This document shows positions 2,965-13,534 of a stretch of DNA of 61,606 bases, piece by piece. This DNA is from a virus. Its lineage: Duplodnaviria; Caudoviricetes. The stretch spans positions 1-61,606 of IMG/VR virus record IMGVR_UViG_3300030372_004181; one strand, 5' to 3'. The notes under the pieces are model-generated. The model did no database searches, was not told the origin of the DNA, and saw only the letters and a list, made by a program, of their open reading frames with translations. Each line of letters starts with the position of its first letter. Positions within the stretch are counted from its first letter, which is position 1. The position numbers and the translations under genes were made by a program.

Positions 2965-2980
2965 TCGATTATTATATTCG

Positions 2981-3262
2981 ATGATTAACCGTTCACAATT
3001 AGGGAGTACAACAAATATGAGTTCATTTTATGAAAGCAATTTATATCCAAACAAAAAAAAATTAGAGGAAAAAAAGAAAAATAGAAAACCTGGTAGACAA
3101 GCAGATGCAAAAAAGACAGGAGGACGTGTTGGGTATAAAAAAGGTAAATTAGTTGGTGGTCAAAATAAATTAGATGCCAACAAAGACGGTAAAATATCTA
3201 AAGCAGATTTCGCTCTTTTGAAAAAAAAGAAGAAGAAAAAGAAAACTAAGAAGAGCAAGTAA
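2981..3262 (+). CDS. Lys-rich small protein with EF-hand-like loop
   Basis: DANKDGKISKADF loop, poly-K tail, KTGGRVGY motif; N-terminus INRSQL matches the capsid protein; alternative start at 3017. Confidence 0.8.
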   Translation: MINRSQLGSTTNMSSFYESNLYPNKKKLEEKKKNRKPGRQADAKKTGGRVGYKKGKLVGGQNKLDANKDGKISKADFALLKKKKKKKKTKKSK

Positions 3263-8534: not shown

Positions 8535-8732
8535 ATGGACGGACTATGGTTGAGCGATAAGATACTTCGTATCATTCGCGACAAAAAACAAAAGACTACA
8601 GATTTTGTTATGCAAGGCAGCACGACAGAAAGAGCTGACTATAATTTTATGATTGGTCAATATCGTATCTTAGAAGAAATAGAAGATGAGATAAAAGAGA
8701 TCTTAAAAAAAGGAGAACAAAACGATGAGTGA
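8535..8732 (+). CDS. Small helical hypothetical protein
   Basis: ORF between portal region and GroES. Confidence 0.8.
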   Translation: MDGLWLSDKILRIIRDKKQKTTDFVMQGSTTERADYNFMIGQYRILEEIEDEIKEILKKGEQNDE

Positions 8733-9234
8733 TTTAATATTACCCACGCACATGGCTAAAGCCAGAAAAAAAGAAAAAATAAAAGTTGCAGAAGAAGGAA
8801 AAACAATTGAAGAATTAGAAAAAAACCAAAAGAAAGTAGAAGAAATATATGGAACAAGAGAATCTAAATACCTGGACCCTGATAATATTGACAGCGATAT
8901 TGCTGAAAAACTACCTCGTCCCACTGGTTGGAGGATTTTAATTTTACCTTATTTAGGTGCAGAACGCACAAAAGGTGGAGTTATTTTATCTGATCAAACA
9001 CGTGAAAGAGAGCAGTTAGCAACCGTTTGCGGTTATGTAGTAGCCACTGGCCCTGATGCGTATGGAGATACAGCTAAGTTTCCTGAAGGACCTTGGTGTA
9101 AAAAAGGTGATTGGGTGATCTTTGCCCGTTATGCGGGGTCAAGATTAAAAATTGACGGTGGTGATTTAAGACTCTTGAATGATGACGAAATACTTGCTAT
9201 AATACAGGATCCGACTGACATATTACATATGTAG
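8725..9234 (+). CDS. groES: Co-chaperonin GroES (Cpn10)
   Basis: PTGWRILI...TKGGVIL...VVATGPDAY...GDWVIFARYAG...LLNDDEILA is the Cpn10 signature. Confidence 0.92.
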   Translation: MSDLILPTHMAKARKKEKIKVAEEGKTIEELEKNQKKVEEIYGTRESKYLDPDNIDSDIAEKLPRPTGWRILILPYLGAERTKGGVILSDQTREREQLATVCGYVVATGPDAYGDTAKFPEGPWCKKGDWVIFARYAGSRLKIDGGDLRLLNDDEILAIIQDPTDILHM

Positions 9235-10784: not shown

Positions 10785-11351
10785 ATGGCAAATAAAGACG
10801 CAGCCTTTGGGTTTAGACCTGCAAGGCATTTAAGTGGTGGCGAGATTCGTACTGAAGAGTATGCAATTGCAGCTAACCACGGCACTTCCATCTTCAGCGG
10901 ACAAGTTGTAGAGGCAGTGGCAGCGGGCGGTATTGAGCAAGCAGCAGCTGGAGACACTCAGCAATTGGGTGTTTTTGGAGGTTGTTTTTATACTGATCCG
11001 ACATCAAGTAAACCAACATATAAGGCGTTCTATCCGGCAAGCACTAATGCTTCTGATATCGTTGCATATGTTTACTCAGATCCACATATCGTGTTTGAAG
11101 CACAACATGATGGAACTGGAACAGCAGCTATGAATCATTCGGGTTTTGATTTTGTAGGTACTAGTGGAAGCACTATTACTGGACAATCAACTTCTGAGAT
11201 TGATACTTCTACTTCTGGTACATCAGGTGGTTTTAAGCAAATCGGAATCTCAAAAGATCCTGATAACAGTGATACAGCAAATGCAAACGCTAACGCGTAT
11301 GTAGTGTTTAACACTGGTGAGCATGTGTATAAACTAACAACTGGCGTATAG
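10785..11351 (+). CDS. Putative head decoration / minor capsid protein
   Basis: AAGGAGG RBS; beta-rich, small-residue-rich; immediately upstream of MCP. Confidence 0.65.
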   Translation: MANKDAAFGFRPARHLSGGEIRTEEYAIAANHGTSIFSGQVVEAVAAGGIEQAAAGDTQQLGVFGGCFYTDPTSSKPTYKAFYPASTNASDIVAYVYSDPHIVFEAQHDGTGTAAMNHSGFDFVGTSGSTITGQSTSEIDTSTSGTSGGFKQIGISKDPDNSDTANANANAYVVFNTGEHVYKLTTGV

Positions 11352-11365
11352 GGAGGATTTAAACT

Positions 11366-12271
11366 ATGGCTATAAATAGATCACAACTTGCAAAAGAGTT
11401 GGAACCTGGTTTGAATGCACTATTTGGACTAGAATATCAAGGCTATGAGAATCAACACGCTGAAATCTTCGACACAGAAAACTCTGACAGAGCTTTCGAA
11501 GAAGAAGTAATGTTGTCAGGCTTCGGTTCTGCATCAGTTAAACCAGAAGGTTCTTCTGTTAACTTTGATAGCGCAACTGAGTCTTTCACAGCTCGTTACT
11601 CTCATGAAACAGTGGCACTGGCTTTCCAGATTACTGAAGAAGCTGTAGAGGATAACCTTTACGACAAGATCAGTACTCGTTATACGAAAGCTCTTGCACG
11701 TTCAATGGCTCATACAAAACAAGTTAAAGCTGCAAACGTTTTAAACAACGGTTTCGACTCTAACTTTAAAGGTGGAGACGGTGTGGAGTTATTTTCTTCA
11801 GCTCACCCAACTACATCTGGTAACCAAAGAAATGAGTTAGAGACGCCTTCAGATCTTAATGAGACATCTTTAGAGCAAGCAATGATTGACATTGCTGCTT
11901 TTGCTGATGACAGAGGTCTAAAAGTTGCTGCTAAAGCTCGTAAGTTGATTATACCTTCAGCTCTACAATTCACTGCAGAAAGATTAATGAAATCTGCAAA
12001 CAGAGTTGGAACTGCTGATAATGACATCAACGCATTAGCATCAAAAGGAATGATTCCTGAAGGCTATGTAGTGAACAACTACATAACTGACACAGACGCA
12101 TTCTTTATCAAAACTGATGTGCCTAATGGTATGAAACATTTCCAAAGATCACCGATCGCTACTTCTATGGAAGGCGACTTTGAAACAGGAAATATGAAAT
12201 ACAAGGCTAGAGAGCGTTACAGCTTTGGTTTCTCTGATTGGAGAGGAATGTTTGCTTCTGAAGGAGCGTAA
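11366..12271 (+). CDS. Major capsid protein
   Basis: 301 aa, GGGAGG RBS, followed by strong terminator; MAINRSQLAKELEPGLNALFG N-terminus and GGDGVELFSSAHP motif (Mu gpT-like HK97-fold family). Confidence 0.9.
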   Translation: MAINRSQLAKELEPGLNALFGLEYQGYENQHAEIFDTENSDRAFEEEVMLSGFGSASVKPEGSSVNFDSATESFTARYSHETVALAFQITEEAVEDNLYDKISTRYTKALARSMAHTKQVKAANVLNNGFDSNFKGGDGVELFSSAHPTTSGNQRNELETPSDLNETSLEQAMIDIAAFADDRGLKVAAKARKLIIPSALQFTAERLMKSANRVGTADNDINALASKGMIPEGYVVNNYITDTDAFFIKTDVPNGMKHFQRSPIATSMEGDFETGNMKYKARERYSFGFSDWRGMFASEGA

Positions 12272-12297
12272 TAATTCTTTTCAATAAAGAACTTAGG

Positions 12298-12321
12298 AGG
12301 GGCGCTTCGGCGCCCCTTTTT
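12298..12321 (+). terminator. Intrinsic terminator
   Basis: AGGGGCGC-TTCG-GCGCCCCT followed by TTTT. Confidence 0.92.
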
Positions 12322-12323
12322 AT

Positions 12324-12352
12324 TTGCATATTTATTCTTAAAAGCGTATAAT
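12324..12352 (+). promoter_or_regulatory. sigma70 promoter
   Basis: TTGCAT-17 nt-TATAAT immediately after the MCP terminator. Confidence 0.75.
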
Positions 12353-12358
12353 CGACGC

Positions 12359-12421
12359 ACTGCATATATAAAACAGTCAGCATAGACTCATGCAGTAGAC
12401 AATGTCTCAGACTATGTTGGC
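12359..12421 (+). ncRNA. Candidate pseudoknotted 5' leader RNA
   Basis: P1 12359-65/12390-96, P2 12376-85/12412-21 (with G-U pairs), hairpin 12397-12407; begins at predicted TSS and ends just before the SD. Confidence 0.6.
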
Positions 12422-12437
12422 GGAAAAGGAGACCTAT

Positions 12438-13061
12438 ATGGCAAATTCAACTTTTAGTGGTCCGGTCAGATCAGAAGGTGGCTTTAACGTAATTAATAAA
12501 GCAGCTTCTACTGGCGTGATTACAGAAACTGGTTTTTCAGTTAACTCAACTGGACAACTAGTATCAATGGGAACTAGAAAAATACAATCTTTTGCTGGTA
12601 CATTGGCATCAACAAACGCAGCATCAACTGCTTATGGAGATGGTGATGTCCTTGTTGAATTAGGAACTTTAGATGTTACAGCACCTGACGATTTAGTAAC
12701 ACCTTCTAAGTTTTTTATTCACAGAGCATTAATTGGTATTACAACTGCAGCAGGACAAACTCTTGTTGGTGGTTTATCATTAAGTGCAACATCTGGAACA
12801 GCGACTAACACTGCAGTTGCTTCTGGAACTGAAATTGTTGGTGCTGGTGTAACATCTTTTAACGAACAGTTAAGTGCTACACAATCAATCACAGAGGTTG
12901 ATGTAAACTTTAACAATACTGCTGGTAACTACCACATCTTTGTTCCAAACATTACAGCGGCGATTGCTAGTAAAAACTTATATGCTTTTGCTACTACAGC
13001 AGTAAACGCTGACATAACTGCTGGAAGATTTACAGTAGAATTAGAATACTCAGTATTTTAA
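12438..13061 (+). CDS. Putative virion structural protein (MANSTFSGPVRS...)
   Basis: Start moved to ATG 12438 after AAGGAG; T/A/G/S-rich beta protein. Confidence 0.8.
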   Translation: MANSTFSGPVRSEGGFNVINKAASTGVITETGFSVNSTGQLVSMGTRKIQSFAGTLASTNAASTAYGDGDVLVELGTLDVTAPDDLVTPSKFFIHRALIGITTAAGQTLVGGLSLSATSGTATNTAVASGTEIVGAGVTSFNEQLSATQSITEVDVNFNNTAGNYHIFVPNITAAIASKNLYAFATTAVNADITAGRFTVELEYSVF

Positions 13062-13073
13062 AAATTAACGTTA

Positions 13074-13102
13074 ATGTGGGCCTTCGGGCCCACATGTTTC
13101 TT
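13074..13102 (+). terminator. Terminator / UUCG hairpin
   Basis: ATGTGGGCC-TTCG-GGCCCACAT then GTTTCTT. Confidence 0.7.
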
Positions 13103-13120
13103 AATTAAGGAGGGAAACAC

Positions 13121-13534
13121 ATGGCAGACACAGTAACAGGACCAGAGGTCTTACAAGAAAACGATAAAAGAGTAGCTCTTAAAATAGTTATAGAATCAGA
13201 TGGTACAGGCAGTACAACTGTTTTTTATGACGCTTCAGCACGTACTGTTGCAGGAGCCGCTACACGAGGAGCCTTACAAAGAGTTTGGTTTTGTTGTGAT
13301 ACAGGCGACGGAGGAGATTCTTTTGCTCGTTTAGATTTTGAAGATTCAGATGGAGACAGACCTTTACTTGGTTTAACAGGAACAGGTTATTGGGACTTTA
13401 GAGAATTCGGTGGATTACCACCAAGCACTGACGCCAACACTAACGGTGATATTAATGTGGTCATTCCCGGTGAGGCTGACGACGGTAATATGTACACAAT
13501 TATAGCAGAGTTTATTAAAACTGGCTCAGTGTAA
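13121..13534 (+). CDS. Putative virion structural protein
   Basis: AAGGAGGG RBS; structural-region context. Confidence 0.75.
   Translation: MADTVTGPEVLQENDKRVALKIVIESDGTGSTTVFYDASARTVAGAATRGALQRVWFCCDTGDGGDSFARLDFEDSDGDRPLLGLTGTGYWDFREFGGLPPSTDANTNGDINVVIPGEADDGNMYTIIAEFIKTGSV

Follow-up and report, generated by a model that had tools for sequence, protein, structure and literature searches.

What does the leader of a phage structural gene do when it is filled with helices that cross one another? The question is raised by a complete virus record of 61,606 bases (IMG/VR record IMGVR_UViG_3300030372_004181), the whole of which was analyzed and is referred to here as the window. Between a Mu gpT-like major capsid gene and the gene downstream lies a leader that is probably the 5' untranslated region (UTR) of a capsid cement gene in HTVC023P-type pelagiphages. 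An initial annotation of this DNA had described a three-stem pseudoknot filling the leader of a structural gene and had guessed at a translational operator, a riboswitch-like element, or a packaging-associated RNA. The leader does occupy the 5' UTR of such a gene. With moderate confidence, we read positions 12359 to 12433 as a compact double pseudoknot, an elaborated form of the orphan motif Mu-gpT-DE (Rfam RF03012), that most likely hides part of the ribosome binding site and thereby throttles or gates translation of the cement gene.

Relatives of the leader were collected from IMG/VR by three routes, which gave at least 80 loci through the capsid protein, at least 80 through the conserved N terminus of the downstream protein, and at least 80 through the core of the window's own subgroup of leaders. 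Five GenBank phage stretches were added, and dereplication left 131 distinct leaders of the downstream gene family. Sixty-three of these have the pseudoknot form and 51 have a simple form described below, with no overlap between the two; of the 17 left over, 11 were judged by eye to be variants of one form or the other. At least 114 of the 131 leaders carry the element, in either its pseudoknot or its simple form, in front of the same gene. The set for the window's subgroup comprises 72 distinct leaders, in which the 3' strand of helix a (a') is partly fixed by the search pattern. Covariation of the two crossing helices and the hairpin of the initial annotation was measured on a structure-blind MAFFT alignment of 47 leaders with 500 shuffles, and a second MAFFT alignment of 39 leaders, also with 500 shuffles, excluded the window's subgroup. 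Because the position of c', the 3' strand of a further helix c, varies relative to the Shine-Dalgarno (SD) sequence, a register-free test was also run, in which the longest cognate duplex was compared with duplexes to permuted partners among representatives of distinct sequence types (20,000 permutations).

The two crossing helices that the initial annotation had called P1 and P2 (here helices a and b) were found where it had placed them, with helix b ending 4 nucleotides (nt) before the SD sequence AAGGAG (Table 1). In the 47-leader alignment, helix b was 93.7% paired, with compensatory changes at 9 of its 10 pairs, and helix a was 76.3% paired, with compensatory changes at 5 of 7. Taken jointly, the two helices were 79.1% paired, compared with 59.1 ± 0.9% in shuffles and 28 to 38% for slid partners, and their covariation score was 0.536, compared with 0.201 in shuffles; none of the 500 shuffles scored as high. 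Covariation among homologous leaders, the check that the annotation had named, thus came out in favor of both helices. With the window's subgroup excluded, helix b was 95.1% paired and compensatory at 9 of 9 pairs, a level that none of the 500 shuffles reached. In the register-free test, cognate duplexes measured 6.18 base pairs (bp) for helix a and 8.32 bp for helix b, compared with 4.42 and 5.02 bp for permuted partners, and for each of helices a, b, and c the observed pairing was reached by none of the 20,000 permutations. Within the subgroup, all 7 bp of helix a are kept in 72 of 72 leaders, including the variants ACUGCAC/GUGCAGU and ACUACAC/GUGUAGU, while helix b is built from 21 distinct strand pairs.

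The proposal that this structure forms at the RNA level on the plus strand also stood. Helix b of the window contains two G-U pairs (12377-12420 and 12380-12417), and about 75 G-U cells were counted over both helices (summed pair types, 47-leader alignment); since each would become an A-C mismatch if the opposite strand were folded, they point, together with the covariation, to RNA structure on the plus strand. The single-sequence fold of the leader is not exceptional: the nested minimum free energy (MFE) was −18.8 kcal/mol (z = −1.34), 23 of 200 shuffles folded as well, and the nested structure keeps helix b and drops helix a. Duplex energies of −7.9, −11.7, and −5.0 kcal/mol for helices a, b, and c, respectively, make the knotted state competitive with that nested fold. 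A pairing of the 5' end with the start codon region, present in the nested MFE structure, was rejected, as it is impossible in other subgroups, where the sequence of helix a differs.

Helix c joins GUCUC, between the second and third of three GAC triplets, to GAGAC at the SD sequence, and the overall strand order of the leader is a-b-a'-c-b'-c'. Across the family (39 leaders), helix c was 77.2% paired, with compensatory changes at 6 of 7 pairs, and none of the 500 shuffles was as high; its register-free duplex measured 5.60 bp, compared with 4.26 bp for permuted partners. In the window's subgroup, the c region pairs downstream with at least 5 bp in 67 of 72 leaders. An alternative helix c of UUUCU with GGAAA in some subgroup members was discarded because its geometry is unfit: it would directly follow helix b. 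In a further set of relatives (L009, L010, L012, L034, L040, and similar leaders), c' lies between covarying flanks (GGUC..GACC, GGUU..AACC, and GAUC..GAUC) and the SD sequence is unpaired; judging from these complementarities, c' may sit there in a small hairpin that kisses the loop of arm 3.

A GAC triplet stands at every strand exchange of the fold. The three triplets of the window are spaced 13 and 12 nt apart, and the spacing is nearly fixed in relatives at 13 nt and then 11 to 12 nt (13 nt from GAC-1 to GAC-2 in 45 of 48 parsed leaders). Three GACs around a flanking helix occur in 101 of the 131 leaders. Eight more carry AAC..GAC..GAU, a double change that keeps the pair between the G of GAC-1 and the C of GAC-3 (G1-C3) as A-U, and phage DSL-LC04 has UAC..GAA at the same places, which is the U-A version. 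This junction pair is G12385 with C12412 in the window, the last pair of helix b. When both strands of the window were searched for the descriptor GAC-N10-GAC-N8/9-GAC with a flanking helix of at least 6 bp, it turned up a single time, with a flank of 9 bp; none of 200 shuffles contained it. In the subgroup, the third triplet is GAC in 70 of 72 leaders and UAC in 2; two near-identical subgroup leaders, L272 and L196, have UAC there with no visible compensating change.

We propose that the three GACs form a three-way junction in which the pairs G1-C3, C1-G2, and C2-G3 surround three unpaired adenines. The G1-C3 pair exchanges with A-U and U-A as described above; C1-G2 and C2-G3 would complete the ring by the same logic, and C1-G2 is present in Rfam's own structure for the simple form, RF03012. 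The three GACs are the only invariant unpaired or junction bases of the leader. Invariant junction bases in a set G-C orientation, amid helices whose sequences change freely, suggest that the junction is read by a protein or ligand.

A search of Rfam, which the initial annotation had also suggested, gave a divided answer. No family matched the leader at an E value of 10 or lower in a search over positions 11800 to 13000, and none reached its gathering score anywhere in the window. The best score of the RF03012 model in the genome was 7.7 bits, at an unrelated place, and among 20 pseudoknot-type or intermediate relatives only L131 reached 17 bits. Simpler leaders in the same place of relatives, however, are RF03012: L075, L081, L055, and L061, simple-form leaders of the same gene family, scored 58 to 74 bits against a gathering score of 49. 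The RF03012 consensus is CCUG-A-C[hairpin]G-A-C-AcUAGCCAc-G-A-CAGG-AGAUuaACAUG, and Rfam lists its type as "Gene; sRNA" (small RNA, sRNA) with function unknown. Since the RF03012 model is blind to the window, the element falls outside RF03012 in Rfam's definition and represents a larger pseudoknotted variant built on the same junction. A covariance model (R1) trained on the 39 leaders of other subgroups only had its top hit in the 61.6-kb window at 12361-12440 on the plus strand, with 26.6 bits and an E value of about 0.0014, which is rough because the calibration was short; the next hit scored 16.5 bits.

The kinship is plain in the layout. Both elements are found immediately behind a Mu gpT-like capsid gene and in front of the same gene, whose product begins M..TTFSGP; both have three GACs at helix ends, with an outer helix closed by the G of GAC-1 and the C of GAC-3; and in both the SD sequence takes part in pairing and the 3' end lies at the AUG. 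They differ in their arms. Mu-gpT-DE has a local arm-2 hairpin between GAC-1 and GAC-2, whereas the window has only 10 nt there (12388-12397), of which 7 pair with the 5' end of the transcript. The 3' strand of the outer helix is itself the SD sequence in Mu-gpT-DE (GAC-AGG-AG), whereas the 10-bp helix b of the window ends upstream of AAGGAG and the SD sequence is reached by the extra helix c. Mu-gpT-DE was reported by Weinberg et al. (2017) without a description of the motif in the main text. Among the papers searched, its name occurs in one work (a preprint and its PubMed Central version), in a single passage that only names the family in a list.

The simple form may itself be a pseudoknot, with a pairing that is absent from the Rfam model, which ends at the AUG. 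In these leaders (for example, L075 at 2969-3030, L055, L081, L042, and L152), the 9-nt loop of arm 3 can pair with the start codon plus codon 2. The loop core GCCA stands with AUGGC in 44 of 51 simple-form leaders, and CCCA or CCCU stands with AUGGG in 4 of 51, which have four different arm-2 sequences; in the other 3, a GCC loop faces AUGGGC and a shifted register gives UUGCC/GGCAA. The arm-3 loop thus tracks codon 2 among the 51 leaders (Fisher P = 1.4e-4, with no correction for relatedness).

How the leader would act follows from its position. The 3' boundary of the element is always within 18 nt of the start codon. Among the 63 pseudoknot-type leaders, c' shares at least 2 nt with the SD sequence in 30 and a single nucleotide in 1, and it reaches into the start codon in 12, so that helix c pairs one or the other in 43 of 63. 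Of the three functional guesses in the initial annotation, a translational operator is the one that these counts fit best. Helix b closes a 26-nt loop; the first half of this loop (a') pairs back to the predicted first seven bases of the transcript as helix a, and the second half (c) pairs forward to GAGAC inside the SD sequence as helix c. In the proposed mechanism, the folded leader would limit binding of the 30S subunit, and it could serve either as a fixed throttle on cement protein output or as an operator whose junction is read by some factor. The paired 5' end may also protect the messenger RNA (mRNA) from decay.

The 5' boundary was examined through promoter-like sites. A −10 box (at least five of six matches, no more than 15 nt upstream of helix a) was found in 29 of the 63 pseudoknot-type leaders, and the gap from the box to helix a was 6 nt in 13 of these and 7 nt in 7. 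With its own gap of 6 nt, the window would have a transcript that begins at the first base of helix a. This agrees with the initial annotation, which had called a promoter right after the terminator of the capsid gene and a start near A12359; the hairpin and the promoter-like site are both there (Table 1), and the start itself is predicted. The other 34 leaders lack such a box, and many of them directly follow a hairpin.

Several observations weigh against the reading of the leader as a pseudoknot that gates translation. The outermost pair of helix c is mismatched in several subgroup members (UUCUC or AUCUC facing GAGAC), and the 5-bp helix c of the window pairs only the GAG of AAGGAG. In 20 of the 63 pseudoknot-type leaders, c' ends upstream of the SD sequence (by 0 to 4 nt in 5 and by 5 nt in 15), so simple occlusion is not the whole story for every member. 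In those 15, c' is enclosed by a covarying GG..CC pair, and the contact may be a loop-loop kiss. Helix a is only 57 to 76% paired on the MAFFT alignments across subgroups, because MAFFT misplaces its 5' strand. The junction pairs C1-G2 and C2-G3 never vary and are therefore beyond the reach of covariation, and the UAC triplets at GAC-3 (2 of 72 subgroup leaders) would break C2-G3, which argues against a strict pair at that place. The strict G-C orientation of the junction also hints at a recognizing factor that the explanation does not name. Four seawater metatranscriptomes, examined as contigs, gave fragmentary cover over 11300-13200 that stems from relatives. Some of these contigs end at 12297 or 12327 and others start only at 12371 or 12384; depth is near zero over 12324-12387. 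Such contigs cannot show transcript ends, divergence could explain the gap, and no conclusion is drawn from the cover.

The paired 5' end could instead be the point of the structure. On this explanation, which we consider unlikely, the leader is an mRNA stabilizer: the compact fold protects a late transcript from 5'-end-dependent decay, and its overlap with the ribosome binding site is incidental. Helix a (helix b in the simple form) does start at the predicted +1 (where a −10 box exists, the gap is 6 to 7 nt in 20 of 29 leaders), and the one-gene unit has its own promoter-like site and terminator-like hairpin. In the 34 pseudoknot-type leaders that have no −10 box, however, the element would lie within a longer mRNA. 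A stabilizer, moreover, needs neither a 3' end fixed so close to the AUG nor a loop that covaries with the SD sequence or codon 2, and both are found.

The recognizing factor that the gating explanation leaves unnamed might be a protein of the capsid itself. The GAC junction, which is three-fold pseudosymmetric, could be a binding site for a phage capsid protein, the best candidate being the conserved N-terminal arm of the downstream, probably trimeric cement protein and the alternative being the capsid protein; we regard this proposal as quite unlikely. Protein not yet assembled would hold the fold closed over the ribosome binding site, and capsids would titrate the protein away. If this were true, cement protein synthesis would be coupled to capsid assembly by a new kind of RNA operator, in the most abundant pelagiphage group of the ocean.

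A small ligand or ion at the three-adenine junction could likewise stabilize the fold and shut off translation, which would make the leader a riboswitch, as the initial annotation had allowed. The junction bases are invariant amid freely covarying helices, and helix c resembles an expression platform in overlapping the SD sequence. In the SAM-II and preQ1-II riboswitches, the 3' strand of a pseudoknot helix overlaps the SD sequence and folding competes with translation; the architecture of the leader recalls these pseudoknots, and its c' strand has the same overlap. The window differs from them: it has no Rfam match, its conserved core is much smaller, and the gene downstream is structural and not metabolic. 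A pocket built from only nine conserved junction bases would be very small, and the product is a capsid accessory protein rather than one of metabolism or transport. No conserved antisequestering fold was found, and the sole candidate, a hairpin of AGAC with GUCU, is kept in 6 of 47 leaders. The riboswitch guess is thus weakly supported, and we judge it very unlikely.

That hairpin was the third stem of the initial annotation, in which it stood between P1 and P2 and left the SD sequence free. The crossing of the two helices survives from this three-stem pseudoknot, whereas the third stem does not and is replaced by helix c. The hairpin can form in the window and in 52 of the 72 subgroup leaders. 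Across the 47-leader alignment, however, it was 42.3% paired, and the set A-U, A-U, C-G was kept in only the 6 leaders just mentioned; in the 20 subgroup leaders that are unable to form it, the c region still pairs downstream with at least 4 bp. Its GUCU strand is also the strand that pairs with GAGAC, and its AGAC contains an invariant junction triplet; the complementarity of AGAC with GUCU arises because c' (GAGAC) contains the same AGAC as the junction. A pseudoknot with this local hairpin in place of helix c is accordingly highly improbable.

The chance that the element is a trans-acting sRNA made downstream of the capsid gene and acting elsewhere is close to negligible: RF03012 is classed as an sRNA gene, but in 131 of 131 leaders the element immediately precedes a gene of the same family, holds the SD sequence of that gene (the Rfam model itself ends in AUG), and is separated from the open reading frame (ORF) by no terminator in the window.

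Two further classes of RNA were considered and dropped. The packaging-associated RNA guessed at earlier is unsupported, since the element always abuts the start codon and contains the ribosome binding site; a packaging RNA like the phi29 pRNA was set aside on these grounds. Ribozymes like that of hepatitis delta virus have a P3/L3 between the 5' strand of P2 and the 3' strand of P1. The window has only 4 nt at that place, and this candidate was rejected as well.

Pseudoknots in leaders are known from several translational control systems. In phage T4 gene 32, E. coli rpsO (S15), and the alpha operon (S4), a leader pseudoknot lies at the ribosome binding site, and a bound protein blocks or traps the 30S subunit. 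Like these systems, the window has its pseudoknot in a 5' leader, with the ribosome binding site inside the fold or next to it; its a-b-a'-c-b'-c' topology with a GAC junction is different. A match to the Rfam family Alpha_RBS in the relative L162 (16.1 bits against a gathering score of 38, E = 7.8) is noise. Coronavirus frameshift elements are three-stem H-type pseudoknots with an inserted hairpin, placed at a slippery site inside an ORF. P1 and P2 of the window also cross in the H-type manner, and loop 3 can be drawn with a hairpin. That hairpin lacks conservation, however; the element lies in a leader, and the third helix forms a second pseudoknot.

The analysis ties the orphan motif Mu-gpT-DE to a specific downstream gene, which probably encodes a cement protein. 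It also shows the motif to be modular, with hairpin or pseudoknot arms on one fixed GAC junction, and its loops to track the SD sequence or the start codon. With the gene link, the modular forms, and the loop tracking taken together, an "unknown sRNA" becomes a translational control element that can be put to the test. The a-b-a'-c-b'-c' fold, built around a symmetric junction, is also small and therefore an attractive target for determining RNA structure.

Table 1. Features of the leader and its surroundings in the window
Feature	Position	Strand	Details
Major capsid protein gene, Mu gpT-like	11366-12271	+	ORF; upstream neighbor of the leader
Terminator-like hairpin GGGGCGC-UUCG-GCGCCCC (12299-12316), then U run	12299-12325	+	Read from the sequence
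Sigma-70-like promoter site TTTGCA-18 nt-TATAAT	12323-12352	+	10 of 12 matches
Leader element, whole 5' UTR	12359-12433	+	About 80 bases before the ATG of the gene at 12438
Helix a 5' strand (P1), ACTGCAT	12359-12365	+	At the predicted +1; pairs with 12390-12396, 7 bp
Helix b 5' strand (P2), GTCAGCATAG	12376-12385	+	Last base, G12385, is the G of GAC-1
GAC-1 junction triplet	12385-12387	+	Invariant in the 47-leader alignment
Helix a 3' strand, ATGCAGT	12390-12396	+	Within the 10-nt stretch from GAC-1 to GAC-2; pairs with 12359-12365
Hairpin AGAC-AAT-GTCT	12397-12407	+	Can form in the window, −2.1 kcal/mol
GAC-2 junction triplet	12398-12400	+	Invariant in the 47-leader alignment
Helix c 5' strand, GUCUC	12404-12408	+	Between GAC-2 and GAC-3; pairs with GAGAC at 12429-12433; overlaps hairpin strand GUCU
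GAC-3 junction triplet	12410-12412	+	C12412 is the first base of the helix b 3' strand
Helix b 3' strand, CTATGTTGGC	12412-12421	+	Pairs with 12376-12385, 10 bp
SD sequence AAGGAG (12426-12431), overlapped by helix c 3' strand GAGAC (12429-12433)	12426-12433	+	3-nt overlap
Putatively regulated gene, 207-amino-acid probable capsid cement/decoration protein	12438-13061	+	ORF; start ATG 12438, 6 nt after AAGGAG
Terminator-like hairpin ending the one-gene unit	13074-13095	+	9 bp (6 G-C), then T-rich tail

Positions 12323 to 13095 of the window have the makeup of a self-contained unit within the structural module: a promoter-like site, the leader, the cement-like ORF, and a terminator-like hairpin. 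The leader element starts 88 nt past the stop codon of the capsid gene. The product of that gene matched the Pfam families PF25209 (Phage_capsid_4, E = 8.5e-14) and PF10124 (Mu-like_gpT, E = 1.5e-7) and the PHROG family phrog_371 (major head protein), and its nucleotide sequence is about 70% identical to those of the Pelagibacter phages HTVC023P and HTVC027P and of phage 023Pt_psg01. The hairpin that follows it is kept in the window's subgroup and is spanned by weak Rfam alignments to terminator-bearing sRNAs; a terminator scan of the window did not list this hairpin, though it is evident in the sequence. The −10 box and the TTGCA of the adjoining promoter-like site are likewise conserved in the subgroup. 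This site probably acts as a promoter, and its two boxes with their 18-nt spacing predict a +1 at about 12359. Beyond the cement-like gene lie an ORF of 137 amino acids and then a head-tail adaptor of the SU10 type.

The gene that the leader would control was assigned its start at ATG 12438. An in-frame ATG at 12402, used in a listed ORF of 219 amino acids, was rejected as a second start; it has no SD sequence, and relatives read ACG or TTT there. The N-terminal arm of the protein is conserved over about 30 residues, with the consensus MANTTFSGPVRSExGF and the motif M..TTFSGP, and the window's own N terminus, MANSTFSGPVRS, fits the M..TTFSGP found after RF03012 hits. The C-terminal parts are unrelated among relatives, and total lengths range from 134 to 306 amino acids. 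A PHROG family of unknown function, phrog_36974, matched residues 1 to 32 only; no Pfam family matched the protein, and a tblastn comparison with GenBank phages gave no match. There were 1,170 homologues, and the best 120 of these were all named "hypothetical protein" or carried a bare gene call.

An AlphaFold 2 (AF2) model built from a 15-row alignment was a beta-sandwich with a predicted local distance difference test (pLDDT) score of 68.3, and Foldseek gave weak matches to jelly-roll capsid proteins. The best VIA match of the model was 7eel_H (cyanophage Pam1 capsid; Z = 8.7, root mean square deviation of 3.2 over 109 residues), followed by 8h89_J (Ralstonia phage GP4 capsid; Z = 7.8) and 7dou_4 (KHP40 trimeric cement protein; Z = 7.4), where a Z of 7 to 8 is common by the tool's own caution. 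In phage DSL-LC04, the annotation "cement protein" is given to the gene that occupies this slot and shares the N terminus. The downstream protein therefore probably cements or decorates the capsid, to which its conserved arm would anchor it, and its outer domains would be exchangeable.

Among the relatives, leader forms and C-terminal parts combine independently of each other; for example, the window, L014, L040, L056, and L075 have the same downstream protein and four different leader forms. A literature search found no paper linking pelagiphages with pseudoknots or a phage cement protein with translational repression, and a broader search returned nothing on pelagiphage RNAs among the matches listed. 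A GAC-junction leader also stands before the equivalent gene of Roseobacter phage CRP-901 (L283), in the simple form, and of phage DSL-LC04 from lake water (L284), in the pseudoknot form with U-A in place of G1-C3; the element is therefore not confined to SAR11 phages. In the window, the ORF at 8725-9234, four genes upstream of the capsid gene, occupies the slot in which GroES cochaperonin genes are annotated in HTVC023P, HTVC027P, CRP-901, and DSL-LC04. Two leaders of the same gene family, L070 and L077, have no GAC junction and share another conserved sequence about 90 nt upstream of the ATG. This sequence has complementary segments of its own (GGGCAU..AUGCCC and UUGCAC..GUGCAA), and these two may represent another class of leader.

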